NCBI GenBank assembly: GCA_913009475.1
Contig: CAJVYJ010000001.1
Location: 1 to 31,402 of the forward strand
Direction: 5' to 3'
From: an uncultured Actinomycetes bacterium
Lineage (GTDB): Bacteria > Actinomycetota > Aquicultoria > CAJVYJ01
Length of the DNA stretch: 31,402 nt
Below the pieces are notes generated by a model. It did not search any database. It was given only the letters and a program-made list of their open reading frames with translations, and was not told where the DNA came from. This document shows, piece by piece, positions 1,298 through 19,720 of this stretch (positions are counted from its first letter, which is position 1; each line of letters starts with the position of its first letter). The position numbers and the translations under genes are program-made.

Positions 1298-1330
1298 TTG
1301 CACTCATTTCCTAGATTTAGATAATTTTCA

Positions 1331-1362: not shown

Positions 1363-1416
1363 AAAATATTTTATCACAGAAATGGATTAAGAGAACGATA
1401 AGAAGATGGTTGATAA

Positions 1417-2058: not shown

Positions 2059-2070
2059 GATTTCTCACTT

Positions 2071-3359: not shown

Positions 3360-4494
3360 TATTTAATCCTTGTAACGCTAAGCCAATTGGTATCGCCATC
3401 GATGGTTCTTCGGAAACCAAGGCTTCCGCTTCCAGCTTAGGACTGATTTTTATCTTAGCAAGTGGAGTCCCCAGTTCGACTTTTGATTGTAGGCCATTCT
3501 CCAGATAATCAGTGATGTTGGTTAATCTAGCTCCGTTACCCGATAAGATAATGCGAGACACCTTCCTGACTTTAGTCGCTTGAGTTAAATAATAGTCAAG
3601 TGAGCGGCGGAGTTCAGCCACAAAGTAAGCTATCTGAGTTTCCAATACTCGCCGGACAGCATCTTCCTGGGTCCCTTCCTCAGGGTCAATAGGGTTTTCC
3701 TCTTCTTTTTGGGTTAATTTCGGCAACCCGACCTTGCGTTTTAACTCATCAGCCACCTCAAAAGAGACATTGAGCGCATCGGATATAGCTCTATTCAGGT
3801 CATCACCCGCCATAGGAGTAACACGAGCAAAACGCGGCATTCCATCTTCGACTACGACAATATTGGTCAGCCCGGAACCTATATTGATTAGCGCCGTCGC
3901 CGACTCTACCGAAGTATCGTCATCCTCAGGCAAGAAAGTATTGGTATCATCAAGAAGCGACCTGACAATCGCGAAAGCGGATAGGTCGACAACTTGCGGC
4001 CTAAGCCCAGCTTTCTCGACAGCGCTGATGGTGTTGTTGATTAAATCTTTTTGTGCCGCCACTAACAGCACTTCAATCATTTTCTCATCATTTTCGCCTA
4101 AGAATTGATTGACTATTTGCGCGTCAATAATCGCTTCATTAATTGGAATGGGGATATAGTCTTGCGCTTGAAATTGAATAGCTCCCTTAAGCTCATTTGG
4201 CTCCATAAAAGGAAGCTCGATTAAACGAACAATAACTTTTTGGCTGGCGATGCCAATCGTCACATCTTTACCTGACAAACCACTTTTTTTCCATAATTGG
4301 GTTAAGGATTGAGATACGGTCTCGACATCAATGATCTCACCCTCGACTACGGAACCGACCGGAACTTTGATTTTGGCGTAGTTGGCTAAGGTATTGGTTG
4401 CAGCGCCTGGAGTAATTTGCGCGGCCCGAAAATGGCCTGTACCTATATCTAGGCCTATTGGTGTGGCTGATCTGCCAAATGGAAAAATGCCCAA
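3352..4494 (-). CDS. pilM: Type IV pilus assembly protein PilM (actin-like)
   Basis: IGLDIG N-terminus, VLLVAA, LINIGSG, ELRRSLDYY, ILSGNGA and IPIGLAL motifs. TTG start with a GGAGGA RBS. Confidence 0.93.
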   Translation of the reverse strand: MGIFPFGRSATPIGLDIGTGHFRAAQITPGAATNTLANYAKIKVPVGSVVEGEIIDVETVSQSLTQLWKKSGLSGKDVTIGIASQKVIVRLIELPFMEPNELKGAIQFQAQDYIPIPINEAIIDAQIVNQFLGENDEKMIEVLLVAAQKDLINNTISAVEKAGLRPQVVDLSAFAIVRSLLDDTNTFLPEDDDTSVESATALINIGSGLTNIVVVEDGMPRFARVTPMAGDDLNRAISDALNVSFEVADELKRKVGLPKLTQKEEENPIDPEEGTQEDAVRRVLETQIAYFVAELRRSLDYYLTQATKVRKVSRIILSGNGARLTNITDYLENGLQSKVELGTPLAKIKISPKLEAEALVSEEPSMAIPIGLALQGLNND

Positions 4495-4644
4495 TCTTCG
4501 AATCCTCCTGTGACTTCTATTTCTTCATCTGCTACAAATATTTCTGCGCTAATTATAGTAATCAAGCTATATAAGCTGTTTAATACAGGCAAAACCAACT
4601 ATTTATGATAGCATATCTTAAATTTTATTTCATTACTTAATAGA

Positions 4645-4672
4645 TTATCGGTTAAGCGAAAGCTATCCTTTA
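4645..4672 (-). promoter_or_regulatory. Putative sigma28/WhiG-type promoter for pilMNOP
   Basis: Minus strand reads TAAAGGAT-N12-ACCGATAA, i.e. TAAA-N16-(G)CCGATAA. Spacing is the same as at the pilA and pilT sites. Confidence 0.6.
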
Positions 4673-4755
4673 GGAGCCTGTCTAAATATTCCGCTTCGTC
4701 AAAGTTATGAACGCCGTTCCTCTTTTCCCTGTCACTACACTCTTCCTTGGTTACA

Positions 4756-4783
4756 GAATTGTCAAGATTGAAGATCTGACCCC
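4756..4783 (+). repeat. 28-bp inverted repeat, left copy
   Basis: GAATTGTCAAGATTGAAGATCTGACCCC is the exact reverse complement of 8802-8829 and lies 2 nt beyond the pilD stop codon. Confidence 0.95.
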
Positions 4784-4785
4784 TT

Positions 4786-5580
4786 TTAGAGTATGAAACC
4801 GATATACCATTGAAATAGTTCATAGCCAAAAAAGAGCGTCAACATCGCTCCCAGGCTTAAATAAGGACCGAAAGGCAATAAGTCTTTGCGGCTCTTATGG
4901 AAAAAAGCCATAGATATAATACCTGCCAACGAACCCAGTAAAAAACCTATAAAGAGCGCTATGAGCACATAGCGGCCGAGAAATATACCCATAAATGCCG
5001 CTAGCTTAATATCGCCGCCGCCCATCCCACCCGGACGGACCATCGCAATAATCAATAGCAGACCGCCGCCTAAAACAAAACCGATTGCCATCTCCAAATA
5101 ACCCACGCTGCCGACAATCGGCATGGCTTGACGGCCTGCCAAACCGGCGGCAACAGCTAATATCGGCACTACGACCAGCGAGGGCAGAATAATGCGGTTA
5201 GGAATTATCTGCCGTTGCGCATCAACTACCGCGACCGTCAATAAAACTAACAGCATCAGCGCCGCAAATATGAATTTGAGGTCAACGCCGAATTTAAAAA
5301 AGGCAGCCACCAGCAATAAAGCGGTTGTTAATTCAACCAACGGATATTGCCACGATATCGGCCGGCCGCAATGGCGGCACCGTCCCCGTAACCAAAACCA
5401 ACTGAGCAGAGGGATATTATCATACCAACTTAATCCCTCACCGCACTTCGGGCAGTGAGAGCCCGGCCAGACTATCGATTCTTTACGCGGCACCCGATAG
5501 ATTATAACATTCAAGAAACTGCCGGTCGCCAAAGCAAAGGCGATAATTACTGATAATATAAAAATCAATGCCAACTCCAT
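4786..5580 (-). CDS. pilD: Prepilin peptidase / N-methyltransferase
   Basis: GSFLNVIIYRVP, SHCPKC and RCRHC Zn-binding domain, D-x-x-x-x-IIP, MGGGDIKL and PFGPYL motifs; multiple TM segments. Confidence 0.96.
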   Translation of the reverse strand: MELALIFILSVIIAFALATGSFLNVIIYRVPRKESIVWPGSHCPKCGEGLSWYDNIPLLSWFWLRGRCRHCGRPISWQYPLVELTTALLLVAAFFKFGVDLKFIFAALMLLVLLTVAVVDAQRQIIPNRIILPSLVVVPILAVAAGLAGRQAMPIVGSVGYLEMAIGFVLGGGLLLIIAMVRPGGMGGGDIKLAAFMGIFLGRYVLIALFIGFLLGSLAGIISMAFFHKSRKDLLPFGPYLSLGAMLTLFFGYELFQWYIGFIL

Positions 5581-6267
5581 CTATTTTACTCCGTTTCCGG
5601 AAAGATCAATGCCGTCCTTACCCTTATCAGCATAACGCTCTTTTTCTTTAATAATCAGGGCGGCTTTTTTGGTCTCTCCTAGTTTATTATATATTGCCGC
5701 CAGCTCATCACGAGCATTGTTAAAATTAGGCTCAAGCTTTAGGACCCGCCTGAAGGCGGCCTTGCTCTTCTCCCAGCGGCCTAATTTTTTATAAAAATAG
5801 GCAATCGCCAATTCGTACTGATAATTCTTAGGATCAAGCCGTATCGCCTTTTCCATCTTCTTAACCGCTTCTTCCCGCTTATCCATCTGATTAAAATAGA
5901 GATAGGCCTGATACGCATAGTACTGGGCTTTACCGCCATTTAAACTAACAGCCTTATCAAGCTCTTTCTTCGCCATTTTACTATTTTTTTCAGACAAGTA
6001 GATAGTTCCTAAGTTGAAATAGGCCGTGGCCGAATTAGGATTTAATTTCAATGCCTTTATAAAATTTTTCTTCGCTAAATTAAAATGACCGCTTTTTTGA
6101 TTTTTGATTCCAACGCGTAAAAACTTGTCTACCCTTATCCGACGCGACCCCTGATAACTGATAATCGCTAAAACAAACATTAAAACCAGCGACAACCCTA
6201 CTAAAGGTTTTTGTCTATTCATCGGTTTTTTCCTTTTCATCTTTAACTTATTATCCCTTAATTTCAT
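5581..6267 (-). CDS. Membrane-anchored TPR protein
   Basis: One N-terminal hydrophobic helix, then TPR-like helices (ALKLNPNSATAYFNLG, AIRLDPKNYQY, VLKLEPNFNNA). The start codon is uncertain because there are several Met residues. Confidence 0.8.
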   Translation of the reverse strand: MKLRDNKLKMKRKKPMNRQKPLVGLSLVLMFVLAIISYQGSRRIRVDKFLRVGIKNQKSGHFNLAKKNFIKALKLNPNSATAYFNLGTIYLSEKNSKMAKKELDKAVSLNGGKAQYYAYQAYLYFNQMDKREEAVKKMEKAIRLDPKNYQYELAIAYFYKKLGRWEKSKAAFRRVLKLEPNFNNARDELAAIYNKLGETKKAALIIKEKERYADKGKDGIDLSGNGVK

Positions 6268-6314
6268 TCTATTTAGGCTATTTTTACTTTAAATAATTCT
6301 CAAAATCAGCCGCT

Positions 6315-8168
6315 TCAGTTTTTACGGACCGCTTTGTCGCTAACGTAGCCGGCCGTTTTCCTCCCCATAAGCGCCTGCGTCTTAGCAATCTTGCTCTTGA
6401 CTGTTGAAGAATATTTAACTAATCTATCCGCCTGCTCAAAACTTGCCAGCGCCGCGGGTAGAGTCGGTCTATTTAGCAGCTGATTCTCGGTTAGATAAAC
6501 ATCACCCAGACCCGCGTGAGCATCCACATAATCCGGCTCAGCTTTAGTGAGACGCTTATAAGTAATCGCCGCCGCCTGAAAATCACTTACTGTTTTGTGT
6601 TTAGCCGCGTATTTTAGTTGTGACAAGCCCAAATAAAGCTGATACCTCATCTCGTAAGGATTAAAAGCCACCGCTAACTTATTTTCCTTAACTACCTTGT
6701 TCCATGTGGCTGAATCAGCCGCAATAAATCCCTCGTTAAAATGGTAGTCGGCCAATTGAACTCTAGCGATAAAAAAAATACCGGTGGAAACCGTTGCCAG
6801 AAGCAATAAAGCCGCCGATACCCTGAAGATTACCTTGGGAAATCTTATTGATATGGAACGATAATTCTTTTCGCAAAGTGCCATACCGATAGCGGCCAGA
6901 CTCCAAAAAAACGGTGATAACTCCACGGTCGAGAAATAAGCTTGGATAAATATTAAATAAGCGATAATAGACGCTGTTAAGCCCCATAATACCGCCTCTT
7001 TTTCACCGCCGGCAGCGCGCGCGCCCTTGATCAGTCCACCGACAAGCGCTATTAAAAGCGCCAGATAAGCCGCTAGGCCTAAAATCCCCATATTTGACGC
7101 TGTCTGCAGAAATTCATTATGAGCCTTATCTACCGGCCGGCCTTCCGTATCACGTACTTTCCAATCGGCGGGACGATTTAACCTGTAAGCATAGTTAAAA
7201 GTGTCGGGGCCATAGCCGAATATCGGCCGTTTGGCTAAAGACACCAGCGCCACCCGCCAGTATAATAACCGAGCTGATTCATTCATATTAATCTTATTTA
7301 TACTGGCCGACCGGAGATCGACATCTTGATTGGTTGAAGCACTGCCAACCAACACCACGGATAAAAATAGGAGTAAAGCAATAAAACCAATAATCAATAT
7401 CCTAAGATTAAGCCGGTGACGATAAACTACCAATAAAATAAAAATACCAAGGCCGACGCCAATCCAAGCGCTTTTTGTATGTGATAAATATAAGACCGGT
7501 AGAGCCAAAATCAGATTAACCGTAGCTAATATAGCTTCGGAGGAACGATAATTTTTGTTTATTATTAACGCCAGCGACACCGGTATGGTAAGAGTCAAAA
7601 AACCGCCCAAAAAACCGGGGTTGCCCCAGAGCGCCGCTAGCCGCGAACCGTCCAAGGCCAGTTCCGGAAAGAGTGAATATCCGAAAAATTCAAATACGGC
7701 GTAAACACAGACTATAATAGAAGCGAGCAACAAAATAGATAGATAATCCAGAGCTCGTTTTTGGTTAGAAAAAAGTTGATATATAAGTGTAAATAATAAC
7801 GCGTAACTTAAGAGGGCCAGTAGGCCGTCATAGCGCATAAACCAACCAAAAATCGCCGTAGTTCGGCTGACTGAAAATATCGTCGAGGCAGCGGCGGCTA
7901 AAAGATAAATAAAAATAAACAGGTGAAGCCGGGAAAGTCTTACTCTAAGAGCACCATGAATACTAGCCCCTAATAGCCAAAAAAAGACACCTATTAATAG
8001 TAACCCGAAAAAAATAGTTACTTTTATTAATGAGTAAGGTTGAAAACCCCAGGGATTAATAGCTAAGGGAATGAGTAATGTCATACCTAGGATAATAATC
8101 CGACTAACATTTGTAGAAAAAGAAAACTCATCAACCCGATCTACCGCTGCTACGACTGTTGTTGCCAA
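6315..8168 (-). CDS. O-antigen-ligase (Wzy_C) family protein with C-terminal TPR-like region; candidate pilin O-oligosaccharyltransferase
   Basis: About 12 TM segments, R-x-x-A-x-x-GNP, RLLYW, PIFGYGPDTF and KAHNEFLQ Wzy_C motifs, and a helical C-terminus. It lies directly downstream of the pilin. TTG start. Confidence 0.8.
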   Translation of the reverse strand: MATTVVAAVDRVDEFSFSTNVSRIIILGMTLLIPLAINPWGFQPYSLIKVTIFFGLLLIGVFFWLLGASIHGALRVRLSRLHLFIFIYLLAAAASTIFSVSRTTAIFGWFMRYDGLLALLSYALLFTLIYQLFSNQKRALDYLSILLLASIIVCVYAVFEFFGYSLFPELALDGSRLAALWGNPGFLGGFLTLTIPVSLALIINKNYRSSEAILATVNLILALPVLYLSHTKSAWIGVGLGIFILLVVYRHRLNLRILIIGFIALLLFLSVVLVGSASTNQDVDLRSASINKINMNESARLLYWRVALVSLAKRPIFGYGPDTFNYAYRLNRPADWKVRDTEGRPVDKAHNEFLQTASNMGILGLAAYLALLIALVGGLIKGARAAGGEKEAVLWGLTASIIAYLIFIQAYFSTVELSPFFWSLAAIGMALCEKNYRSISIRFPKVIFRVSAALLLLATVSTGIFFIARVQLADYHFNEGFIAADSATWNKVVKENKLAVAFNPYEMRYQLYLGLSQLKYAAKHKTVSDFQAAAITYKRLTKAEPDYVDAHAGLGDVYLTENQLLNRPTLPAALASFEQADRLVKYSSTVKSKIAKTQALMGRKTAGYVSDKAVRKN

Positions 8169-8294
8169 AATAACGCGACCTTTGCTGTGAATTATGGTTT
8201 AAATATCAAACTGTTTAGTTGTTGGCAGATAATATATTTCTTAAGTTATAACTATATATCGGTTTAAAGAAAAAATAGTTAAATTAAAAAAGGC

Positions 8295-8331
8295 AAAAAA
8301 ATCGACCGGCATTTAAGTGCCGGTCGATTTT
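8295..8331 (-). terminator. Intrinsic terminator after pilA
   Basis: Minus strand reads AAAATCGACCGGCA-CTTAAA-TGCCGGTCGATTTTTTT, a perfect GC-rich stem followed by a U7 tract. Confidence 0.85.
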
Positions 8332-8368
8332 AACCTAAATAACTTTAGTCTTTTTTATTAATTAGCGT

Positions 8369-8710
8369 TTAGTAAGTAGTACCCTCATCATCTTGCGCAT
8401 GAGCCGGAGCAGATGAAGTGGCAGCCACATATGTATAATCGCCGCCGCCTAACGGATCAGAAGGCATCTTTTTAATATAGGTTGGAATTAAGTCTGATAT
8501 AGCACTTGGCTCCGTATTATTGACCGATATATAAGTTTGGATGGCTCCATCCAAGGTCCTTAAGTTAGCCTGAGCGGATTTTACTTTAGCATTTTGTGAA
8601 GCATTCATAAATACGGGCACAGCAATGGCTACTAAGATACCAATAATAAGAACAACTACCATTAACTCAATTAAAGTAAAGCCTTGCTCGCCTCTGAGTG
8701 ATTTCAACAT
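8369..8710 (-). CDS. pilA: Type IV pilin, probable major pilin (113 aa prepilin)
   Basis: Class III signal MLKSLRGEQG|FTLIELMVVVLIIGILVAIAVP with Glu5. GGGAGGTG RBS lies 7 nt before ATG 8710, so the longer ORF start at 8794 is unlikely. It has its own promoter and terminator. The mature protein has no Cys. Confidence 0.92.
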   Translation of the reverse strand: MLKSLRGEQGFTLIELMVVVLIIGILVAIAVPVFMNASQNAKVKSAQANLRTLDGAIQTYISVNNTEPSAISDLIPTYIKKMPSDPLGGGDYTYVAATSSAPAHAQDDEGTTY

Positions 8711-8754
8711 TTTAATACACCTCCCTTCCATGTTGGAAATATCTCTTATGACTT

Positions 8755-8782
8755 TTATCGGCTGTTGACCGTAAAAACTTGA
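8755..8782 (-). promoter_or_regulatory. Putative sigma28/WhiG-type promoter for pilA
   Basis: Minus strand reads TCAAGTTT-N12-GCCGATAA. The -10 is a perfect sigma28 match and the -35 matches TAAAGTTT at 7/8. Confidence 0.75.
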
Positions 8783-8801
8783 TAAAAATTCCATATCAAA
8801 T

Positions 8802-8829
8802 GGGGTCAGATCTTCAATCTTGACAATTC
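8802..8829 (-). repeat. 28-bp inverted repeat, right copy
   Basis: GGGGTCAGATCTTCAATCTTGACAATTC is the exact reverse complement of 4756-4783 and lies 19 nt upstream of the pilA -35 box. Confidence 0.95.
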
Positions 8830-8883
8830 AGTTACGGATTATGGATAACGGAGAATTAATTAAAAATACAAAACGGAATAGCG

Positions 8884-8922
8884 CGGTTAGCCGTGGATTC
8901 CCGATCGGGGTCGGGAATGACA
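8884..8922 (+). repeat. 39-bp direct repeat copy 1 (CGTC/TGTC-type REP-like palindrome)
   Basis: CGGTTAGCCGTGGATTCCCGATCGGGGTCGGGAATGACA matches 9126-9164 at 38/39 and contains the hairpin ATTCCCGA-N6-TCGGGAAT. Confidence 0.85.
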
Positions 8923-8930
8923 ATAGTGCA

Positions 8931-8997
8931 AGGGTAGAGCGTAGAGGGTCGAGGGTAGAAAAAACGTGAGAGCGTAAGGAGTACGGGCATGAGATGT
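8931..8997 (+). repeat. Degenerate heptamer tandem repeat
   Basis: AGAGCGT-AGAGGGT-CGAGGGT followed by GAGAGCGT-AAGGAGT. A second short heptamer run (TTACGGA-TTATGGA-TAACGGA) is at 8832-8852. Confidence 0.6.
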
Positions 8998-9021
8998 GTA
9001 GGGTGGGTTTTGTCCTCGCCC
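8998..9021 (+). repeat. GTAG-tagged REP-like imperfect hairpin
   Basis: GTAGGGTGGG-TTTTGTC-CTCGCCC: a GTAG tag followed by a 7-bp stem with two G-T pairs. Confidence 0.45.
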
Positions 9022-9063
9022 GTGAAAACTGACGTTTCTTGTTATACTCAGCTCGCTTACGTT

Positions 9064-9091
9064 TGTCATTCTCAGCTTGACTGGGAATCCA
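9064..9091 (-). repeat. Diverged inverted copy of the REP-like palindrome
   Basis: TGTCATTCTCAGCTTGACTGGGAATCCA. Its reverse complement TGGATTCCCAGTCAAGCTGAGAATGACA resembles the 39-bp repeat core and forms an inverted doublet with 9136-9164. Confidence 0.7.
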
Positions 9092-9125
9092 GGTAAAGAG
9101 GTGCACTGGGAAGCATGAAAAGGCT

Positions 9126-9164
9126 CGGTTGGCCGTGGATTCCCGATCGGGGTCGGGAATGACA
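9126..9164 (+). repeat. 39-bp direct repeat copy 2
   Basis: CGGTTGGCCGTGGATTCCCGATCGGGGTCGGGAATGACA. Partial copies are at 9172-9185 and 9241-9251. Confidence 0.85.
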
Positions 9165-9190
9165 GTGGTAAGGGTCGGGAATGACGGTAC

Positions 9191-9228
9191 ACCCCCACCC
9201 CAGCCCTCCCCCGTCCAGGGGGAGGGAG
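9191..9228. repeat. BoxC-like C-rich/G-rich element containing a G-quadruplex motif on the minus strand
   Basis: ACCCCCACCCCAGCCCTCCCCCGTCCAGGGGGAGGGAG contains a 9-bp hairpin (9204-9212/9218-9226). The minus strand of 9192-9212 reads GGGGGAGGGCTGGGGTGGGGG. Confidence 0.7.
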
Positions 9229-9357
9229 AAATTTGTTAAACGGGAATGACAAGTGAAAAAAAGATTACGGATTGGGAAATTATAGGTGGATGCCGGCTCT
9301 TGGCCATAGATACATTAATATATTCGAAATTCCTATTTCCAAAAGGGGAAGAAAAAA

Positions 9358-10575
9358 TTACGATTTAATCAGGTTGATCAAGCCAAACATCGGCAAATAC
9401 AAAGAGATAATGATACCGCCGACGACGATGCCCATAAAGACTATCATTAGTGGCTCGATCAGCGAAGTCAATGACTCGACTAAATTACCGACTTCCTCAT
9501 CGTAAAAATCGGCGATCTTAATCAACATGGAATCAAGAGCGCCGGTCTCTTCACCAACCGCTATCATCTGTACGACCATCGGCGGGAAAACCGGACTTTT
9601 CTCTAAAGGCTGAGCGATAGTTTCGCCCTCTTTAATACTCAACCTGGCGCTTCTTATCGTGCCGGAGATAACTTCATTGTTGGCGGTATCGGCGACAATA
9701 TCCATCGCTTGCAATATCGGCACACCACTGGAGATCAGGGTTCCAAAAGTTCTGGTAAACCTGGCAATTGCTAGCTTGGTAAAGAGCTGCCCGAAGACGG
9801 GAAGTTTTAGTTTGAACTTATCAAGCTGCAGTCGGCCGGAATCGGAATTCTTATAAATTTTAAAAAGATAACGCGCGCCGAAAACTAAGCCGATCAATAT
9901 ATACCAGTAATTATGGATCACGTCGCTGCTAAAAACCAGTAACTTGGTAGGTAAGGGAAGATCACCACCTAATTGGGCGAACATGTTGACAAAGACTGGT
10001 ACCACGAAGGTAACCATGGCAAAGACAATCAGCATCGACATTATAAACATCGCTATCGGATAGGTCATCGCCGCTTTTATCTTACTCTTGATGGCGATAT
10101 CTTTCTCGTAATGGTCGGCGACTCTAAGCAATACGTCATCTAAAACGCCGCCGGTTTCGCCGGCCCTTACCATATTTACAAAAAGATTGGAAAATACTCG
10201 CGGATGTTTAGCCAGCGCCTCGGATAAGGTTTGCCCTGCTTCCACGTCTTTTTGTATTTTTGTGATGACCTCGGCAAACGTCGGATTTTCCACTTGTTCC
10301 GCTAGAATATGCAGCGCTTTGGTCAGAGATAGACCGGCATTGATCATAGTAGCGAACTGGCGGCTGAAAATGGTTATCTCTTTGATTTTAACCTTTTTCT
10401 TGCGGCCGATATTAAAACTAAGGTTTTGGCTGGCGGATTTAGCGCTTACGTTTAGAACCGTAAGTCCCTTCTGCCGCAGTTTGGTTACTACGGTGGTTAC
10501 GCTGTCACCTTCCAGGGTGCCGCTGGTAACTTGGCCGCTTCTATCCTTGACCTTGTAAGCAAATGTTGTCGCCAT
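9358..10575 (-). CDS. pilC: Type IV pilus platform protein PilC
   Basis: FAYKVKDRSG start, FSRQFATMINAGL, MVRAGETGG, KAAMTYP, VQMIAVGEETG and LIEP motifs (two T2SSF domains). Confidence 0.96.
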   Translation of the reverse strand: MATTFAYKVKDRSGQVTSGTLEGDSVTTVVTKLRQKGLTVLNVSAKSASQNLSFNIGRKKKVKIKEITIFSRQFATMINAGLSLTKALHILAEQVENPTFAEVITKIQKDVEAGQTLSEALAKHPRVFSNLFVNMVRAGETGGVLDDVLLRVADHYEKDIAIKSKIKAAMTYPIAMFIMSMLIVFAMVTFVVPVFVNMFAQLGGDLPLPTKLLVFSSDVIHNYWYILIGLVFGARYLFKIYKNSDSGRLQLDKFKLKLPVFGQLFTKLAIARFTRTFGTLISSGVPILQAMDIVADTANNEVISGTIRSARLSIKEGETIAQPLEKSPVFPPMVVQMIAVGEETGALDSMLIKIADFYDEEVGNLVESLTSLIEPLMIVFMGIVVGGIIISLYLPMFGLINLIKS

Positions 10576-10585
10576 ACCTCGCCTC

Positions 10586-11650
10586 CTATCCGATTCTGCC
10601 TAAAATCTGTCTGACCTCTTGAGGATTACTGGCTTGTGCTATCGCCAGATCAAACCCTATTTTTCCTTGGCGATAAAGTTCCGACAGACTTTGATCCATA
10701 GTTTGCATACCATATTTTTGACCGGTCTGTATGGCGTTGTATATCTGATGTGTTTTCGCTTCACGTATCAGATTTCTAACGCCCGGCGTCGGTATCAAAA
10801 TCTCCACCGCCGGTACTCGACTGTTGCCGTTGCGAACAGGAAGTAACTGCTGACACATTATACATTGTAAGCTGCCCGCCAACTGCATCCTGACCTGCGA
10901 TTGCTGATGAGGCGGAAAAACATCGATAATGCGGTCGATTGTCTGCGGCGCATCTTGCGTATGTAAAGTAGCCAGAACTAAATGTCCAGTTTCAGCCGCG
11001 GTCAGCGCGGTAGAGATGGTTTCCATATCACGCATCTCGCCTACAAGTATTACATCCGGGTCTTGACGCAAAACATACTTCAACGCGTTGGAGAAGGAGT
11101 TGGTGTCATTGCCTATCTCCCGCTGATTAATGATGGATTTTTTATGCTTATGAAGATATTCGATCGGATCCTCGACGGTTATAATATGAACCGAACGATT
11201 GGTGTTGATATAATCGATAATAGCTGCCAGAGTAGTTGATTTACCACTACCGGTCGGTCCGGTTATCAAAACAAAGCCTCTGGGTTTTTTGGCGACCTTT
11301 TCTAGTATACGCGGCATACCCAATTCCTCAAGCGTACGAATCCTAATTGGTATCAGCCTAAAAGCCGCGGCTAAACTGTTCCTTTGAAAGTAAATATTGA
11401 CCCTAAAGCGGGAATGGCCGGGTACAGAATAAGACATGTCAAATTCTTTCTTACGTTCGACTTGCTCACGCTGTTCTTGAGTTAAAATACTATAGATGAT
11501 TTCTTGAGTATCGGTGGCCGTCAATTTAGGATAACTTAATCTACTAAGCGCTCCATTAATTCTGACGACAGGTGGGACGCCCACCGTTATGTGAAGGTCT
11601 GAGGCGCCCTTTTCCAATACTTCTATCAGTAGATCGTTGATATAAATCAT
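10586..11650 (-). CDS. pilT: Type IV pilus retraction ATPase PilT
   Basis: ASDLH, Walker A GPTGSGKST, TVEDPIE, LRQDPDVILVGEMRD, ETGHLVLATLHT and a GVRNLIRE (AIRNLIRE-type) motif. Confidence 0.97.
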   Translation of the reverse strand: MIYINDLLIEVLEKGASDLHITVGVPPVVRINGALSRLSYPKLTATDTQEIIYSILTQEQREQVERKKEFDMSYSVPGHSRFRVNIYFQRNSLAAAFRLIPIRIRTLEELGMPRILEKVAKKPRGFVLITGPTGSGKSTTLAAIIDYINTNRSVHIITVEDPIEYLHKHKKSIINQREIGNDTNSFSNALKYVLRQDPDVILVGEMRDMETISTALTAAETGHLVLATLHTQDAPQTIDRIIDVFPPHQQSQVRMQLAGSLQCIMCQQLLPVRNGNSRVPAVEILIPTPGVRNLIREAKTHQIYNAIQTGQKYGMQTMDQSLSELYRQGKIGFDLAIAQASNPQEVRQILGRIG

Positions 11651-11710
11651 GTATCTTCCCTTTCGCTTACAAACTACGCTGGCTATAGTCGAATTTTCAC
11701 ATACTCTTTA

Positions 11711-11738
11711 TTATCGGCTAGTTTATTGCGTAACTATA
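11711..11738 (-). promoter_or_regulatory. Putative sigma28/WhiG-type promoter for pilT-pilC
   Basis: Minus strand reads TATAGTTA-N12-GCCGATAA, with a perfect -10. The -35 overlaps the pilB2 stop codon. Confidence 0.68.
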
Positions 11739-13392
11739 CAACTACTCTCATTATCTCTTCTATCGAAGTTAAGCCCATTTTTATTTTCTCGAACCCGTCA
11801 TCTTTCAAAGTCCTTAGGCCCTCCTCTATTGCTACTTTCCTGATATCATCAGCGCTGGCTCGATCGACGGTCAACTGCTCGATTTTTTCGCTCATCGGCA
11901 TAATCTCATATAACCCGACTCGGCCTTTATAACCGGTATTATTACATTTGCCACAGCCAACCGGGCGATATAAAATAGGCAGCTCTTCCCCGCTGATTGG
12001 AAAGCCGGAGTTTTTTAGGGCCGACGCCGGTGGTTGGTATTCTTCTTTGCACTCCGGGCATAAACGCCGGGCCAACCTTTGCGCTTGAACGCAAGCTACG
12101 GCTGAAGAAATTAAAAATGGAGCTATGCCCATCTCCGTCAACCGGCTGATGGCACTGGGAGCGTCATTGGTATGGAGGGTACTTAAAACCAGATGCCCGG
12201 TAAGCGCGGCTTCAATGGCTATCTGCGCCGTCTCTTTGTCCCTGATTTCACCGATCATAATAATATCGGGTGAAGCCCGCAAAATCGCCCGTAAACCGCG
12301 GGCGAAGGTCAGCCCGGCCTTAGTATTTATTTGCACTTGATTAATACCGGGCAGACGATATTCGACTGGGTCCTCAACGGTAATAATATTCTTTCGCTCA
12401 TCGTTTATCGTATTAAGAGTAGCGTAAAGAGTAGTTGATTTACCACTGCCGGTCGGGCCGGTTACTAAAATAGCTCCATAAGGGCTCGTATATGCTTTTT
12501 TAAAACGCTCTAAGCTCTTGGGCATAAAACCCAGATCATTTAAGTTCAGCATAATACTGTCTTTTTCTAAAACTCTTAAGACGACGCGTTCCCCATAGAC
12601 AGTCGGAAGTGTCGCCACGCGAAAGTCAACGCCGCGACCGCGAATAGTCAAGGCGCAACGCCCATCTTGGGGCTTTCTTGTTTCCGCGATATCCATGCCC
12701 GCCATGATTTTTAAACGTGATATTATCGCTGATTGCACATGTTTGGGTGAGCGCATTATCTCCTGTAAAACACCGTCGATACGATAACGTATCCGCAAAT
12801 CTTTCTCCATCGGTTCTACGTGTATGTCGCTGGCTCGACTTTCCACGCCTTGAGAAATAATAACGTTTACTAATTTAACTATCGGCGCTTCTTCGGTAAA
12901 GCTTGTAAGCTCACTTAAATCTTCTTCAGGATTAAGATCTTCATCGGATAATGTTTCCGCCATCTGATGATAGCGGCCTATGTTGGCTTCAATATCTTCT
13001 TTGGTGGCAATAACCGGTATAATCTCATAACCGGTTATCATTTTAAGGTCATCACCAGCGACAAGATTATCCGGTGAGACCATTGCGACTACCAACTTGT
13101 TGCCGTCAAAATCTAAAGGTAAAACCAGATATTTTCGGCAAACTTCTTCCGGCACAACAGCGATAGCGTTAGCGTTGACTTTAGCGTCACTGATATCGAC
13201 AAAGGGAATGCCGATCTGCTCAGCCAACTTTGATATCAAGACCGAGCTATTGATGTCAGCCAGTTCGACCAGACACCGGCTAAGAGGCACTCCGGTCAGT
13301 CGGTGCACCGCTATGCAGTCAATATAATCAGGCTCCGTTATAAGTTCGGCTTTAACTAAAAACGCGCCGAATCGTTCAATAATATCGCTCAC
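11734..13392 (-). CDS. pilB: Type IV pilus extension ATPase PilB, paralogue 2
   Basis: ASDIHVEP, RKPQDGR, GPTGSGKSTT, TVEDPVE, IMIGEIRD, GHLVLSTLHTND, CPEC and CGKC Zn sites; degenerate MshEN-like N-terminus. Confidence 0.95.
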   Translation of the reverse strand: MSDIIERFGAFLVKAELITEPDYIDCIAVHRLTGVPLSRCLVELADINSSVLISKLAEQIGIPFVDISDAKVNANAIAVVPEEVCRKYLVLPLDFDGNKLVVAMVSPDNLVAGDDLKMITGYEIIPVIATKEDIEANIGRYHQMAETLSDEDLNPEEDLSELTSFTEEAPIVKLVNVIISQGVESRASDIHVEPMEKDLRIRYRIDGVLQEIMRSPKHVQSAIISRLKIMAGMDIAETRKPQDGRCALTIRGRGVDFRVATLPTVYGERVVLRVLEKDSIMLNLNDLGFMPKSLERFKKAYTSPYGAILVTGPTGSGKSTTLYATLNTINDERKNIITVEDPVEYRLPGINQVQINTKAGLTFARGLRAILRASPDIIMIGEIRDKETAQIAIEAALTGHLVLSTLHTNDAPSAISRLTEMGIAPFLISSAVACVQAQRLARRLCPECKEEYQPPASALKNSGFPISGEELPILYRPVGCGKCNNTGYKGRVGLYEIMPMSEKIEQLTVDRASADDIRKVAIEEGLRTLKDDGFEKIKMGLTSIEEIMRVVV

Positions 13393-13423
13393 AGTTGACG
13401 TCTCTCCTTAAATCATAAATATA

Positions 13424-13948
13424 TTAAGCGCTCTTGATTAGATTGTTATCTTTTTCGTCTTTATTGCTTAAAAGTACTGATAATATTCCCTGTTTGGCTG
13501 CATCTTTATTACGTACGCTAATATTAATTTGCGGACATCCGGCGACCAATTTTAATTTCTGCTGTAATTTCTTTAATTCGCCGGCCTTTTTTATATCATT
13601 AAATACGACCAAATAGGGTAAGCCCAAGGAAGCTAATTTATCAATCAATGTTTTGGCTTTCTCGATTTTATTTTTGGAATCATTGGAATTGACGATTATA
13701 ATTAGACCCGCTAAATCCTTGGCCGCTCGCTGCCAAATAACTTTATAACTATCCGCCAGCGGCGTTCCAATCAGAAATAAATACTGATTCCTGTCAATCT
13801 TAATGTGTCCCAATTCCATTTCTTGATAAGGAAAATCCGCCGAAAACTTTTTTTTCAGCTTGATTACTCTGCTCTCACCGGCACTCTCTATAAAAGTCGA
13901 CACTAAGGTAGTGTCGACACCGGTTATGATAATATTTATAAATTCCAT
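13424..13948 (-). CDS. MglA/CvnD-like small GTPase fold with a degenerate P-loop (putative pseudo-GTPase)
   Basis: The layout IIITG...STF / ELGHIKI / LFLIGTP / GLIIIVN / LPYLVVFN parallels MglA and ATP_bind_1 proteins, but GxxxxGK(T/S) reads GVDTTLVS and GTPGQ reads GTPLA. Confidence 0.6.
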   Translation of the reverse strand: MEFINIIITGVDTTLVSTFIESAGESRVIKLKKKFSADFPYQEMELGHIKIDRNQYLFLIGTPLADSYKVIWQRAAKDLAGLIIIVNSNDSKNKIEKAKTLIDKLASLGLPYLVVFNDIKKAGELKKLQQKLKLVAGCPQINISVRNKDAAKQGILSVLLSNKDEKDNNLIKSA

Positions 13949-13989
13949 GAAACTTTTCTTTCTGTGAATACATTACATTTATAATTAGT

Positions 13990-15054
13990 TCAGGCGTTAA
14001 GCTCTTCTTTTAATTTGGTAATTGCCTTATTTAAGGAATCGGCTTTTAAGGAATTATCAGTGATTATCTTTTCCAACTTAAATTTCTTCGCACCTACTTT
14101 GTCGGTAAGAACATCATCATTTGTTAACGCCGACAGCTCGTCTATGAAGTCTCTTCTATAGATGGACAATTCATTGGCTACCATATTATCCAAGCCCTCA
14201 ATGTCCAACTGCGTTAATATCTCTTTTTGTTTATTTTTATCAAGAGCCGAGGATGGAGCGGACTCGGCGGCAGGCTCTTTTTTCAAATTCGAGACGGTTT
14301 TGGACATCTTTGGTTCCGCCTTGATTTTATGCTTTTCTTTTACATGCGATAGTTTTAAAAGACCTGAAACTACTAGGTCAGACAGCAGAGAGCTGGTAAC
14401 AAACTCACTTTTTTTACTTTTTAGCGCCAACTCCGTTACACTACGTTTACCGTCGATAAAACGGAGTAACTTCCAATGCTCTTGGTTTAAAGAGGAGTCT
14501 TGATAATTAGCGGCCTTACCACTGACGGCAAAGACAGCGCTAACTGATGGTACTTGTTTTTGAACTCGACTCCATTCACCGCGCCGTTGGTTACTCTCCA
14601 ACAAGACCTTTTTAGCATTTACCAGTAAACCGATGTCTTCAATGGCCGGTAAATTCGGCAAGAATTGAAAATCACCTTCCTCCCAAGGAAGTAGGTCAAA
14701 AACTGTTGATTGTATCTGCTCACGCACAATTTTCTTCAATATCTCCGGTGAGATCAAACCTTCAGCTACTAATATTTGGCCGATTTTTCTTCGTTTCTTA
14801 TCTTTTTTCTGAAGTTCTAAAGCTTGAATTAGATTTTCTTCAGTTATATATCCACCTTCTATCAAGCGTTCGCCAATGGGAACACGATTAAAATTGGATA
14901 CGGCCCCGAATATTTTGCCGTTACGAAAGTAGACAAAAGCCTCAGCCTCACCTTGAGACCGAACGATATGAAGCGTACCGGTTTTTTTACCGGTATGTAT
15001 AAGCTGAAAAATATGTTCCAGGCTAAAGTCGCTAAGGTTGCCGCCAAGCGCCAA
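13990..15054 (-). CDS. DUF4388 (PATAN-like) protein with an internal MshEN-like tandem motif
   Basis: LGGNLSDFSLEHIFQLIHTGKKTGTLHI N-terminus, W-x-EG-x-F-x-F and a winged-helix-like IDGKRSV segment. Residues about 57-113 are MshEN-like. TTG start with an AGGAG RBS. Confidence 0.8.
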   Translation of the reverse strand: MALGGNLSDFSLEHIFQLIHTGKKTGTLHIVRSQGEAEAFVYFRNGKIFGAVSNFNRVPIGERLIEGGYITEENLIQALELQKKDKKRRKIGQILVAEGLISPEILKKIVREQIQSTVFDLLPWEEGDFQFLPNLPAIEDIGLLVNAKKVLLESNQRRGEWSRVQKQVPSVSAVFAVSGKAANYQDSSLNQEHWKLLRFIDGKRSVTELALKSKKSEFVTSSLLSDLVVSGLLKLSHVKEKHKIKAEPKMSKTVSNLKKEPAAESAPSSALDKNKQKEILTQLDIEGLDNMVANELSIYRRDFIDELSALTNDDVLTDKVGAKKFKLEKIITDNSLKADSLNKAITKLKEELNA

Positions 15055-15088
15055 TTTATGCTCCTAATTAATATTATATTTTACGTTT

Positions 15089-16759
15089 CTAAGCCGTCAC
15101 TCTAAGTACTTCTTCAAGGGAGGTCAGGCCCTTTAGAACTTTTTTCAATCCATCCCGACGTAAAGTGACCATGCCCTCTTCAATCGCCGTTTCCTTAATT
15201 TTATCGGACGTTACTCGCTTAACTGTTAGTTTCTCTATTTTATCGCTGACCACTAGAACTTCATATAAGCCAACCCGACCGTGATAGCCGGTATTATTAC
15301 ATTTGTTGCAGCCTTTGGCCCGATATAAAGTGGGAATGTCGCCGGTGATTTCCAGCCCCGCATCTTTTAACATTTGTTCAGAAGGCGCAAACGGCTCACG
15401 ACACTCAACGCATAGCCGGCGCGCCAGCCTTTGGGCCACCACACAATCAACGGCTGAAGCTATCAAAAAAGGCTCAATGCCCATCTCAATTAACCTGGTG
15501 AGAGAACTGGCCGAATCGTTGGTATGTAGGGTTGATAAGACAAGATGGCCGGTAAGAGCAGATTCCACAGCTATCAGAGCAGTTTCTTGATCGCGAATCT
15601 CACCGATCATAACTATGTCGGGGTCATGTCGCAGAATGGACCGGAGGGCCGCGCCAAATGTCATTTTAGCTCTGACGTTTACTTGTACTTGATTAACGCC
15701 CGCCAAGCGATATTCGACCGGGTCTTCGACCGTAATTAAATTTTTTTCTATTTTATTCAATAAGCTCAAAGCACCATATAGAGTAGTGGTCTTACCGCTG
15801 CCGGTGGGTCCGGTAATTAAAATAGCGCCGTAAGGCTTAGTAAAAGATGCTTTAAAACGTTTCAGGGGTTGGGGCAGAAAACCCATATCGTTCAAATCGA
15901 CTTGGAGCGAATCCTTCAATAACAGCCTAAGAACTATATCCTCTCCATAAATAGTCGGCAACGTCGCTACGCGAAAATCAACCTCCTTACCTGAATGATT
16001 AAGGTTAAAGCGACCGTCTTGAGGCACGCGACGCTCAGCAATGTCCATGCCCGACATTATTTTTATGCGTGAAGTCAAGCCGGCTTGAATTTTTTTGGGT
16101 GAGCGCATAATCTCGTGAAGTACGCCATCGATACGATAACGGATACGTACATCACGATCCTGCGGTTCGATGAAGATATCGCTGGCCCGGTCACGTACCG
16201 CTTCCACTAAAATCAGATTTACCAACTTAACCACCGGTGCTTCCTCGGAAGCATCCTCATCGCCTTTGTTGGAACTCTGGCCACTCTCCAAATCATCGGC
16301 AACATTTTCAGCCATCTCTTCAACTGATTCATCCATGCGTGAAAATTTATTAATAGCGGCGCTAATATCCGATTCGGTAGCTACAATCGGGTCTATCTCT
16401 CGCTTGGTCAACAGACGCAAGTCATCAATGGCAAAAATATTAGCCGGGTCGACCATGGCTACAACTAAGCGCTCATTATTAAAAGCAACAGGGATTAGGT
16501 CGTATTTGCGGCTGATCTCTTCGTCTATCAGAGTGACGGCACTGGGGTCGACCTCATAATTATCAAGATCGACAAATTTAAGTTTCATATAGTCGGCGAT
16601 AGCGGCGGCAATCTTTTTTTCGCTACTAAAGCCAAGTTCCGCGATAGTACGGGTGAGGCCTTTATTTTTTTTAGATTCTAAGGCAATGTCAAGCTGCTCC
16701 TGAGTTATTAGGTTAGAACCGATTAGAATTCTTTCGAGTCGCCGGCTTACTCTTACCAT
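15089..16759 (-). CDS. pilB: Type IV pilus extension ATPase PilB, paralogue 1
   Basis: ASDIFIEP, RVPQDGR, GPTGSGKTTT, TVEDPVE, VMIGEIRD, GHLVLSTLHTND, CVEC and CNKC. The start overlaps the 3' end of aroE by 47 nt. Confidence 0.95.
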   Translation of the reverse strand: MVRVSRRLERILIGSNLITQEQLDIALESKKNKGLTRTIAELGFSSEKKIAAAIADYMKLKFVDLDNYEVDPSAVTLIDEEISRKYDLIPVAFNNERLVVAMVDPANIFAIDDLRLLTKREIDPIVATESDISAAINKFSRMDESVEEMAENVADDLESGQSSNKGDEDASEEAPVVKLVNLILVEAVRDRASDIFIEPQDRDVRIRYRIDGVLHEIMRSPKKIQAGLTSRIKIMSGMDIAERRVPQDGRFNLNHSGKEVDFRVATLPTIYGEDIVLRLLLKDSLQVDLNDMGFLPQPLKRFKASFTKPYGAILITGPTGSGKTTTLYGALSLLNKIEKNLITVEDPVEYRLAGVNQVQVNVRAKMTFGAALRSILRHDPDIVMIGEIRDQETALIAVESALTGHLVLSTLHTNDSASSLTRLIEMGIEPFLIASAVDCVVAQRLARRLCVECREPFAPSEQMLKDAGLEITGDIPTLYRAKGCNKCNNTGYHGRVGLYEVLVVSDKIEKLTVKRVTSDKIKETAIEEGMVTLRRDGLKKVLKGLTSLEEVLRVTA

Positions 16760-17633
16760 TATTTTTTGCGCCTTTCAAATTTTGTTCAGCTTCAAGAGCA
16801 GCCGCCATAGTCGCAACTGGAGCGGATTGTCCGGTCCAGATTTGCCATGAGGCTACTCCCTGGTAGAGCAACATATAGGCGCCGTTTAATATTCTGGCGC
16901 CTCTTCTTTTGGCGCCGGCCAAAAACCGGGTTTCCGCCGGTTCATAAATTATGTCATACACTAAATGCTTACGCCCTATGTTCTCCATCCCTATGGGAAG
17001 ACCCGGATTAGATAACATTCCGACAGATGTCGCGTTAACTATCAAATGGTTCTCGCTTTGCAGGGATACTATATTTTCGTCATTTACAGCCAAAACCTTA
17101 ACTAAACAACGAGGAAAATTATCATGGATCAACCGTTGTAAACGCTGAGCGCGCTGAGGTGTTCTGTTGACGATAATGAGGCGTTTTATCCCAGCCATAG
17201 CCAACGAGACCGCAATAGACTTAGCGGCACCGCCGGCGCCAATCAATAGAACATTTTTGCCGCGCGGAGAGAACTGGGCCTGCTTCTTTAAACTCTCAAC
17301 AAAACCTTGCCCGTCAGTGTTATAACCCACCAAGCCGTCTTCTTTAAATAATATCGTATTAACAGCACCGGCTATTCTTGCCGCCGGCGATAGTTCGTCC
17401 AAATACTTTATCACCTCCTTCTTGTAAGGCATGGTGACGTTAATACCGACAAAATTTAACGCCTTTAAACCTTTAATGGCAAAACCAAGTTGTTCGGATT
17501 TAACTAATAACGGTAAGTAAGCCCAGTTTAAACCCGCTTTTTTAAAGGCGGCATTTTGAAATACAGGCGAAAGTGTATGCTTTATCGGATAGCCGATAAT
17601 CCCTGTTAATTTGGTTTTTCCATCAATTTTCAT
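16713..17633 (-). CDS. aroE: Shikimate dehydrogenase
   Basis: GYPIKHTLSP, GINVTMPYK, GAVNT, GYNTDG, IGAGGAA, NATSVG, DIIYEP and MLLYQG motifs. Confidence 0.96.
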   Translation of the reverse strand: MKIDGKTKLTGIIGYPIKHTLSPVFQNAAFKKAGLNWAYLPLLVKSEQLGFAIKGLKALNFVGINVTMPYKKEVIKYLDELSPAARIAGAVNTILFKEDGLVGYNTDGQGFVESLKKQAQFSPRGKNVLLIGAGGAAKSIAVSLAMAGIKRLIIVNRTPQRAQRLQRLIHDNFPRCLVKVLAVNDENIVSLQSENHLIVNATSVGMLSNPGLPIGMENIGRKHLVYDIIYEPAETRFLAGAKRRGARILNGAYMLLYQGVASWQIWTGQSAPVATMAAALEAEQNLKGAKNNGKSKPATRKNSNRF

Positions 17634-17703
17634 AATTTGTTCCTATTAATGAGATTTGTATACTCCTCTATACCCTCTTTGACAATGACCTTCCCTCGTT
17701 ATC

Positions 17704-17979
17704 CTAACATATATCAAAGCCCCGGTAATCGCGACTAAGCGCTGACCATCGCGTAGTTACTTCACTGACTTCAGCCGAGCGCGGCCCTAACCGCAGCAGG
17801 GAAATCAGCTGTTTCAGTTTTAACTCTTCGCCTTGCGCCAAAACCTCCACACTGCCGTCCGCCAGATTTTTAGCATAACCGGACAACCCTAATGAATTAG
17901 CCTGTTTGGCGGTAAAGTAACGGAAGCCCACTCCTTGCACACGCCCCTTTATCTTGGCTAAGACTTCTTTTTTTATCAT
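17704..17979 (-). CDS. acyP: Acylphosphatase
   Basis: GRVQGVGFRYF, GYAKNLADGSVEV and GPRSAEV motifs. Confidence 0.95.
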   Translation of the reverse strand: MIKKEVLAKIKGRVQGVGFRYFTAKQANSLGLSGYAKNLADGSVEVLAQGEELKLKQLISLLRLGPRSAEVSEVTTRWSALSRDYRGFDIC

Positions 17980-18488
17980 CGTTTTATAATCAATCTTTCC
18001 AGACGCCGTAATATTTTGGTATGAACCAGATCGACTTGGCTTACCGGGTTCACCAAAATCGTCTTTAAGCCCAAGCGATTAGCGCCGAAAACATCAGTAA
18101 ATATTTGATCACCGATAGCGACGGTCTGGCCCCGGCGAGCGCCCATTTTTGCCATCGCCCGCTTGTAAACCCAACCCATCGGCTTAGCAGCGCGACCGAA
18201 AACGGGAACGCCGGCATTGGCGCCAAAAGACCGCACTCTATGGCCCCAATTATTGGAGATGATAATAATTTTAAAACCATCATCTTTCAACTGCGAAAAA
18301 AGCACTTTTAATTCGTCGGAGACTTGGCCGTCGTCACGAGCCACCAGTGTATTATCCAAATCATATAAGAGAAACAATAAACCCGAATTTTTTAAAGCCT
18401 GATAGTCTATCTTAAATATTGAAGCGGCAAACCAAGTGGGAATAAATGGCTGACGAAGTTTTGCTTTTAATTTTTGCCAAAACATCAA
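17976..18488 (-). CDS. YqeG-family HAD IIIA phosphatase
   Basis: DLDNTL motif I, IISNN, AAKP and IGDQIFTDVFGANRLG motifs. Confidence 0.9.
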   Translation of the reverse strand: MMFWQKLKAKLRQPFIPTWFAASIFKIDYQALKNSGLLFLLYDLDNTLVARDDGQVSDELKVLFSQLKDDGFKIIIISNNWGHRVRSFGANAGVPVFGRAAKPMGWVYKRAMAKMGARRGQTVAIGDQIFTDVFGANRLGLKTILVNPVSQVDLVHTKILRRLERLIIKR

Positions 18489-19720
18489 TTCATATCCGTT
18501 TCTTTAATAGAAGTATTCGACCGGCGCAGAATGGACCCGGCCATTACCGGCTTATTAGTGATTATTTCAATCTTATCATTGGCATGGGCCTCAAGCACAT
18601 CCTCACCGCCTAAAATTATCGTCTCCAATTTAAATGACATAATATTACCATTAGGCATCAACGCCTCCAATTCGTCCCCTATCCTTAATCTATTCCTTAC
18701 TCCGACAAGCAACCGCCCTGAATTTAACCGGCACTCCTCAACCAGGCCAACAAAATCATAGCGCCGGATATAGGTTGAGTTTTCGTTGGCTTCCAGCTCA
18801 CTTTCACCATCTAAAAAGCCGGTAGAATAACGGCGATGGCTGACTTTTTCCAACTCATATAACCATTCTCTTTTAAACGAAAAATCTTTTCCAAGTTTGT
18901 AATAATTATCGACAATGGAACGATAAACCCTGACAACCGTAGCGACATAGTGCAAGCTTTTCATCCGACCTTCGATCTTAAATGAGCTGACACCGGCTTT
19001 AATCAAGTCTGGAATAAAAGCAGCCAACCGTAAATCTTTAGAGTTAAAGATATACGAGCCGCGCCTATCTTCAAAAACAGGAAGAAATTCGCCCGAGCGT
19101 TTTTCTTCCATTAAATGATATTTCCATCGGCATGAATGAGCGCAATCGCCAAGATTAGCATCTCGGCCGGCTAAATATTTGCTCAGGAAACAGCGTCCGG
19201 AATATGAAATACACATGGCCCCATGAACAAAGACTTCCGTTTCTAAGCCTGACCGGCCCGCAATCAAACTTATTTCGGGCAGAGACAACTCCCGTGCCAG
19301 AGTTACACGCTTGGCTCCTTGGTCACGCCAGAATTCCGCCGCGTAGCGATTGGTGGTATTTGCTTGAGTGCTAATGTGAACAGGTAGACGCGGCAGAATG
19401 TGACGGACCTGATAAAAAATCCCGGGGTCGCTGACAATAATAGCGTCCGCTTTGCTTTTTGCCACCACCCGCAATATTTCAGGCAAACTGTCAAAATCTT
19501 GATTATGGGCAAAAATATTTAAAGCGATATAGGCTTTAACCTCGTGACGATGAGCAAAAGTTACAGCCGCCGGCAGGTCGCCTAATTTAAAACTACCGGC
19601 GCTACCGCGTAAACTGTAACCATCTATACCGATATAAACAGCGTCAGCGCCGTACAGAATAGCGATTTTTAGTTTTTCTTGGTTACCGGCCGGTGCCAGC
19701 AGTTCGACCTTGTTAGCCAA
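18485..19720 (-). CDS. Peptidase U32 family protein (TrhP/YegQ-like, Fe-S-dependent tRNA hydroxylation family)
   Basis: ELLAPAG, GADAVY, HISTQAN, LARELS, the Cys cluster C-x6-C-x15-C-x3-C (CISYSGRC...CAHSC), KIEGRMKS and a C-terminal beta-barrel. Confidence 0.9.
   Translation of the reverse strand: MANKVELLAPAGNQEKLKIAILYGADAVYIGIDGYSLRGSAGSFKLGDLPAAVTFAHRHEVKAYIALNIFAHNQDFDSLPEILRVVAKSKADAIIVSDPGIFYQVRHILPRLPVHISTQANTTNRYAAEFWRDQGAKRVTLARELSLPEISLIAGRSGLETEVFVHGAMCISYSGRCFLSKYLAGRDANLGDCAHSCRWKYHLMEEKRSGEFLPVFEDRRGSYIFNSKDLRLAAFIPDLIKAGVSSFKIEGRMKSLHYVATVVRVYRSIVDNYYKLGKDFSFKREWLYELEKVSHRRYSTGFLDGESELEANENSTYIRRYDFVGLVEECRLNSGRLLVGVRNRLRIGDELEALMPNGNIMSFKLETIILGGEDVLEAHANDKIEIITNKPVMAGSILRRSNTSIKETDMN

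Follow-up and report, generated by a model that had tools for sequence, protein, structure and literature searches.

To our knowledge, the control of type IV pili in single-membrane bacteria is largely unknown. Among small GTPases, MglA of Myxococcus xanthus and Thermus thermophilus (PDB 6izw, 6h17, 3t1o, and 5ymx) is linked to type IV pilus control; it binds and hydrolyzes GTP, has MglB as its GAP, and works through SgmX. MglA-family genes located near PATAN genes have been catalogued (Wuichet and Sogaard-Andersen, 2014; PMC4316618). A related GTPase subfamily operates in the conservons, or AGPS (CvnA-D), whose mycobacterial Mfp version comprises the CvnD-type GTPase MfpB, the Roadblock protein MfpD, which is the GAP of MfpB, the DUF742 protein MfpC, which binds MfpB directly and is its exchange factor (GEF), and the kinase MfpE (PMC11343762; summarized in PMC13343842). 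PATAN proteins, for their part, have been shown to contact the pilus machinery: in Synechocystis, PixE binds PilB1 through its PATAN domain, and PilC is bound by regulators of the PatA type (bioRxiv 10.1101/2021.06.11.447907).

The window analyzed here, by which we mean the whole stretch of 31,402 nucleotides from an uncultured marine actinobacterium, carries a long co-directional pilus operon. One of its members, P0001, encodes a protein of the same superfamily as MglA and of the same GTPase subfamily as the conservons. P0001 is an ORF of 174 aa on the minus strand (13424..13948), with its ATG at 13948 and its stop at 13424. Read in the direction of transcription, the operon begins with aroE (16713-17633), followed by pilB1 (15089..16759), for a pilus assembly ATPase with MshEN and T2SSE domains, a gene for a PATAN (DUF4388) protein of 354 aa (13990..15054), directly upstream of P0001, P0001 itself, pilB2 (11734..13392), for a second pilus assembly ATPase that is 54% identical to PilB1, pilT (10586..11650), for the retraction ATPase, and pilC (9358..10575), for the platform protein, the genes from pilB1 to pilC all lying on the minus strand. 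It continues with a pilin gene, a Wzy_C-type gene, a TPR gene, pilD, pilM, pilN, pilO, an ORF of 213 aa without a Pfam match (1417-2058), and aroC. The gaps around P0001 are short, with 41 bp between the PATAN stop and the P0001 start and 31 bp between the P0001 stop and the pilB2 start. Pfam scans covering the operon from aroC through to the U32 peptidase gene (143-19720) revealed no histidine kinase of the CvnA type. PATAN and MglA-like genes occur once each in the whole genome; an additional, active paralogue of the MglA-like gene was considered and rejected, the remaining matches being long translation-factor-type ORFs. The annotated ORFs of aroE and pilB1 have 47 bp in common (16713-16759), and since the same overlap is seen in three related loci (L001, L002, and L003), the pilus operon seems to be translationally tied to aroE in this lineage. 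DNA of the locus was matched in three marine metagenome DNA runs alone, and the locus was absent from RNA runs.

The placement of P0001 among small GTPases is carried by structure prediction and by family profiles. With the P0001 sequence alone, Pfam and NCBIfam returned sub-threshold matches only (DUF460 at 17.8 bits and small_GTP at 17.2 bits), and a phmmer search of the PDB stayed at noise level, with Arf1 at an E-value of about 1. A first AlphaFold model, built on a three-sequence alignment, reached a pLDDT of 51; rebuilt with a 60-sequence alignment, the model attains a mean pLDDT of 88.8 and a pTM of 0.85, and presents the six strands and five helices of a canonical G domain in the order β1-α1-β2-β3-α2-β4-α3-β5-α4-β6-α5. 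The top Foldseek matches in the PDB are two structures of M. xanthus MglA (6izw, E 1.7e-8; 6h17, E 2.9e-8), although sequence identity between P0001 and MglA is 11–12%, and these are followed by Arf, Rab, Ras, and FeoB G domains; the MglA, Arf, Rab, and Ras matches have a probability of 1.00 and TM scores of 0.55–0.65. Furthermore, the 60-sequence family profile matches KRas over its full length (E 4.5e-13), and the protein language-model neighbors of P0001 fall in ATP_bind_1/Ras/Arf clusters (score 0.94).

Close relatives of P0001 are few. Among 5.8 billion proteins, the only ones detected were P0003 (60% identity) and P0004 (56–57%), which together with P0001 form a group of three sequences, 56–67% identical, that we call the dead clade; a search of genome contigs for relatives returned a MAG of the same family alone. 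A profile made from the three dead sequences obtained 88 matches among 1.84 billion representatives. The nearest are P0005 (E 8e-27), P0006 (E 3e-24), and P0007 (E 2e-16), with the Walker A motifs GPQGCGKT, GTGSSGKT, and GPSASGKS, respectively, and beyond them lie 80 more CvnD-like proteins. The majority of the remaining matches are ordinary members of the CvnD/MglA-like group and carry GPFNAGKT, GTPGQ, and NKQD. A metagenome match (L041) was discarded as an unrelated protein of 602 aa with N-terminal words alone in common. In other profile matches (P0009, P0025, P0047, P0015, and P0091), TIR and HEAT domains are combined with a CvnD-like G domain, in one case together with a receiver; several of these proteins have no recognizable GxxxxGK[ST], and they may be defense-type or signaling proteins related to the GTPase family.

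The G-domain fold of P0001 comes without the nucleotide-binding motifs. The former G1, or P-loop (residues 10-17; 13898..13921, minus strand), reads GVDTTLVS instead of the Walker A GxxxxGK[ST], the Gly-Lys having become Leu-Val without indels; Ser17 of the ancestral GK[ST] is retained, and an Asp occupies the former anion hole. At G2, the family TTVAMDFG is aligned to PYQEMELG, and the switch-I threonine is gone. The former G3 (residues 61-65; 13754..13768, minus strand) reads GTPLA against a family consensus of GTPGQ, having lost the gamma-phosphate Gly and the catalytic Gln, and the former G4 (residues 116-120; 13589..13603, minus strand) reads FNDIK, without the [NT]KxD guanine-specificity motif (family consensus NKQD/NKxD). 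In the AlphaFold model, helix α1 starts at residue 13 and hence runs into the former phosphate-binding loop. Parallel substitutions are present in two further independent assemblies (GADGSLVS in P0003 and GTDGSLVS in P0004), and assembly error is excluded as the cause of the dead motifs because the three assemblies agree. A P-loop hidden behind an alternative N-terminal start was likewise ruled out, since just 8 further codons are open upstream of the ATG (a 182-aa open frame). With the Gly-Lys of Walker A replaced, P0001 would be unable to bind nucleotide in the canonical manner. The first-pass annotation, made from the letters of the window, had proposed a small-GTPase layout of the MglA or CvnD kind with these three readings of G1, G3, and G4; the layout is borne out by the AlphaFold model and by MglA as the best structural match, and the readings and the coordinates of the ORF proved correct.

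The slot that P0001 occupies has a traceable history. The gene order aroE, PilB1, PATAN, X, PilB2, PilT, PilC, where X denotes the P0001 slot, is kept in every relative examined (the synteny loci for PilB1 to PilC being L001-L007, L027, and L029), and PATAN adjoins X across the class and also in high-GC members of the phylum. In class-level relatives (G010, G013, G014, and G017), X is canonical, with GPF[NA]AGKT, TTVAMDFG, and GTPGQ, while NKxD is present in G017 and G013 and diverged in G010 and G014; the GTPase profile matches GTPases of the live cassette with E-values of 1e-34 to 1e-36. A Roadblock gene lies directly upstream of PATAN in the same genomes. In G017, where the PilB1 encoded upstream of the cassette is 63% identical to that of the window, X is followed by a membrane ORF of 109 aa, and the full live four-gene cassette was verified. 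The P0001 locus shares with this live actinobacterial cassette the same pilB1-pilB2 slot, the PATAN gene upstream, and orthologous proteins, but it lacks the Roadblock gene, its GTPase lacks G1 to G4, and no small membrane ORF is found in the 31 bp that follow P0001.

Relatives from the window's own taxonomic order, represented by eight species genomes, occupy an intermediate position. Roadblock (PF03259) was found in none of the seven genomes searched (G000, G001-G005, and G007), including the 1.82-Mb genome of the window itself (G000), a MAG that is 89% complete and might thus have a copy elsewhere; the earlier remark that no roadblock/MglB gene is adjacent therefore extends to all of the recovered genome. 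None of the own-order orthologues has the Thr pair of switch I, the Gln of G3, or NKxD, and GK[ST] is still found in most of them (G001/P0006, of the same family, G002, G004, G005, P0005, and P0007). In the window's clade, GK has been changed to LV besides, again without indels, yielding a clade consensus of GxDxxLVS. In a maximum-likelihood tree, the dead clade is monophyletic (100/99) and has a long stem (1.09 substitutions per site), with the live P0005 as its sister. Independently, Walker A has eroded in another family of the order, in P0027 (APTEEELR, L027:4001-4507), P0013 (GPAGPKKS, L029:4001-4525), and G003 (GPAEKEKT, L013:1498-2022), with outright loss in P0027 and partial erosion in P0013 and G003; as these sit in a separate, supported clade (97/99) among live members, Walker A has been lost or eroded at least twice in this slot. 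P0001 descends from a CvnD/MglA-type GTPase of a pilus-linked cassette, and the degeneration of that GTPase has been stepwise and repeated.

Two loci of this set show further peculiarities. G003 has two nearly identical PATAN-adjacent gene copies (C59:3827-4348 and C46:36180-36644), which probably stem from different strains in the bin as opposed to a real duplication. In GCA_027068945.1 (L030:1197-4516), the slot is kept, no Pfam match is recorded for the genes called at the PilB1 and PATAN positions, and P0010 (GQENSGKS), the orthologue of X, has a very long branch. The unpublished genome G048 has no part in the conclusions drawn here.

The conservation of the PATAN pairing across the class, together with the published binding of PATAN domains to PilB1 and PilC, makes the PATAN protein the most likely direct partner of P0001. 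An alpha-helical insert of this protein (residues 59-113) carries an MshEN-like c-di-GMP motif. Its middle domain (165-243) is a winged helix, and the protein also has an acidic linker and a C-terminal helix that is conserved. The middle domain can tentatively be regarded as a DUF742-like winged helix: against DUF742/CvnC (PF05331) it scores 22.3 bits, under the cut-off of 27 bits, with 2 of 14 orthologues matching, and hhalign reports a probability of 70% (E 4e-5, 57 columns), a similarity that could be generic to winged helices. The resemblance to the conservons comprises this possible DUF742-like helix, the GTPGQ-type G3 of the live relatives of P0001, and its ATP_bind_1-type neighbors. The P0001 locus nonetheless differs from a conservon in having neither a histidine kinase nor a Roadblock gene, and in that the module with sub-threshold DUF742 similarity is fused to PATAN and located among pilus genes. 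A natural fusion of a CvnC-type DUF742 domain to a CvnD-type ATP_bind_1 domain exists in P0043 (423 aa) and would be consistent with direct interaction between DUF742 and the GTPase. Among the multidomain profile matches there is no PATAN-GTPase fusion; these are TIR-HEAT-GTPase fusions and one DUF742-GTPase. Genomes of 7.5–9.2 Mb from the same phylum have 8–12 DUF742 genes each, in keeping with Actinomycetota.

The insert of the PATAN protein points to a possible second-messenger input. The NCBIfam model NF053729, an MshE-related c-di-GMP motif, exceeds its cut-off in each of the seven own-order-type PATAN orthologues scanned (42–57 bits), and the 1.8-Mb genome has 13 GGDEF matches. The same model also matches the PATAN protein of G010, whose GTPase is canonical. 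The motif hence predates the loss of the P-loop and is not evidence of a hand-over, and the idea that c-di-GMP is the specific replacement signal is unsupported.

The reading that we regard as probable is that P0001 acts as a nucleotide-independent, fixed subunit together with the PATAN protein, linked to PilB and PilC, and perhaps subject to c-di-GMP input. The ancestral cassette between pilB1 and pilB2 would have comprised a GAP of the Roadblock type, a winged-helix PATAN protein, a GTPase, and a small membrane protein, as it does in class-level relatives. In the window's taxonomic order, this cassette would have shrunk to PATAN and GTPase with the loss of Roadblock, and the switch-I threonines, the catalytic glutamine, and the motif for guanine specificity would have disappeared from the GTPase. 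In the window's clade, the replacement of the Walker A Gly-Lys would then have abolished canonical nucleotide binding as well, leaving P0001 as a permanent nucleotide-independent subunit. Such a subunit may bind the neighboring PATAN protein by its switch I/switch II face, which is still conserved, and docking of the PATAN domain on PilB and PilC would then govern pilus assembly. In place of the lost GTP cycle, cyclic di-GMP could provide the regulation, sensed by the MshEN-like PATAN insert as well as by the MshEN domains of PilB1 and PilB2.

A more specific proposal, which we hold to be doubtful, builds on the tentative DUF742-like assignment and invokes an exchange-factor trap: P0001 would mimic the empty state of a GTPase, to which exchange factors bind most tightly, and be permanently clamped by the CvnC-like winged helix of the PATAN protein, forming a constitutive complex on the PilB motors whose control would have passed from a GTP cycle to c-di-GMP. 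If this were true, a single gene slot would document how a switch based on a G protein was fully replaced by one based on a second messenger.

Partnership with the PATAN protein has to be weighed against the suggestion of the first-pass annotation that P0001 is an adaptor for PilB. In this version, P0001 would bind PilB1 and/or PilB2 directly, independently of PATAN, for example to choose the paralogue that engages PilC. The two are not mutually exclusive. The gene is flanked by the two pilB genes in all relatives, P0001 ends 31 bp before pilB2, and MglA-GTP of Myxococcus stimulates pilus formation (cited in PMC11580455 and PMC13343842). Myxococcus MglA, however, works through SgmX and not directly on PilB, and the P0001 system has neither SgmX nor MglB. 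Moreover, the invariant neighbor over class and phylum is the PATAN gene, whose domain is a demonstrated binder of PilB1 and PilC, and direct action on PilB as the main role of P0001 thus appears unlikely.

A lower likelihood still attaches to P0001 remaining a switch under nucleotide control, with non-canonical binding of GTP, ATP, or some other ligand. The retention of Ser17 and the conserved pattern of the former P-loop, GxDxxLVS, would fit such a switch, and the close orthologues that keep GK[ST] without NKxD and Gln indicate that unusual nucleotide handling may run in the lineage. Set against this, the Lys and Gly of the P-loop, the switch-I Thr, the Gly-Gln of G3, and the NKxD of G4 are all gone, an Asp fills the former anion hole, and the modeled helix α1 begins inside the former loop, which makes the switch reading improbable.

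The substitution pattern of P0001 indicates that the gene is maintained. Pairwise dN/dS values for P0001 in the dead clade are 0.18, 0.17, and 0.23 (dS 1.0–1.8), against about 0.03–0.07 for the motor genes and 0.06–0.10 for the PATAN gene, figures that are rough because they come from three sequences with dS near saturation. The flanking genes of the three loci differ at a dS of 0.9–2.6, with the P0001 frame intact throughout. P0001 is the fastest-evolving gene of the operon, with a dN 3–4.6 times that of PilB1, compared with about 2.5 times in live lineages; this excess makes some relaxation possible, and neutrality is unsupported. The fraction of invariant sites, an equally rough measure in three sequences, is 0.68 in β1/α1, 0.70 in switch I, and 0.75 in switch II, and the least constrained parts are the former base-binding regions G4 (0.38) and G5 (0.14). 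Overall, 49% of the columns are invariant and clustered on the switch face, and both length and N-terminus are conserved. Such a pattern would be expected if the partner-binding face were still in use and the nucleotide pocket irrelevant, and it argues for purifying selection and against decay. That P0001 is a functionless, decaying remnant kept through its operon position is highly improbable, for although orthologues with intact Walker A exist, the gene evolves faster than its neighbors, and its stem branch is long, the frame has stayed open in three lineages whose neighboring genes differ at a dS above 1, and the low dN/dS and the conserved length, N-terminus, and switch face speak against it.

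These results also bear on the claim of the first-pass annotation that P0001 is a pseudo-GTPase whose P-loop loss might be shared by its orthologues. The loss is conserved in the dead clade and does not extend to the next-closest orthologues, whose P-loops are intact (P0005, P0006, P0007, G002, G004, and G005). Intact P-loops had been named as an argument for a decaying gene if joined to relaxed selection, and since the dN/dS of 0.17–0.23 does not indicate such relaxation, the claim stands. At the level of sequence and predicted structure, the status of P0001 as a pseudo-GTPase is well supported, with an MglA/CvnD fold and homology, the nucleotide-binding residues of G1 to G4 gone, the loss conserved in the clade, and the gene apparently held by selection.

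In the literature searched, neither a pseudo-GTPase in a pilus operon nor the actinobacterial cassette is described, and there is no Ras-type pseudoGTPase in prokaryotes and no experimental study of a G-protein cassette in actinobacterial pilus operons; within that literature the earlier statement that no described pilus system is built on such a protein holds. In eukaryotes, CENP-M is a nucleotide-free pseudoGTPase. The fungal dynein light intermediate chain is another (PMC4359372). Both have kept a Ras-like fold as a scaffold after loss of the nucleotide-binding residues, but they belong to lineages and cellular contexts unrelated to those of P0001, and the comparison is one of analogy only.

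Within the pilus operon, one gene position provides a natural series that leads from a full switch, through a GAP-less and catalytically crippled form, to a nucleotide-dead form. This suggests that the essential job of the cassette GTPase is structural binding and not switching, and the series supplies ready-made constructs with which to ask what the nucleotide cycle adds. In P0001, a molecular switch seems to have been turned into a fixed adaptor, and its relatives show the steps of that loss.
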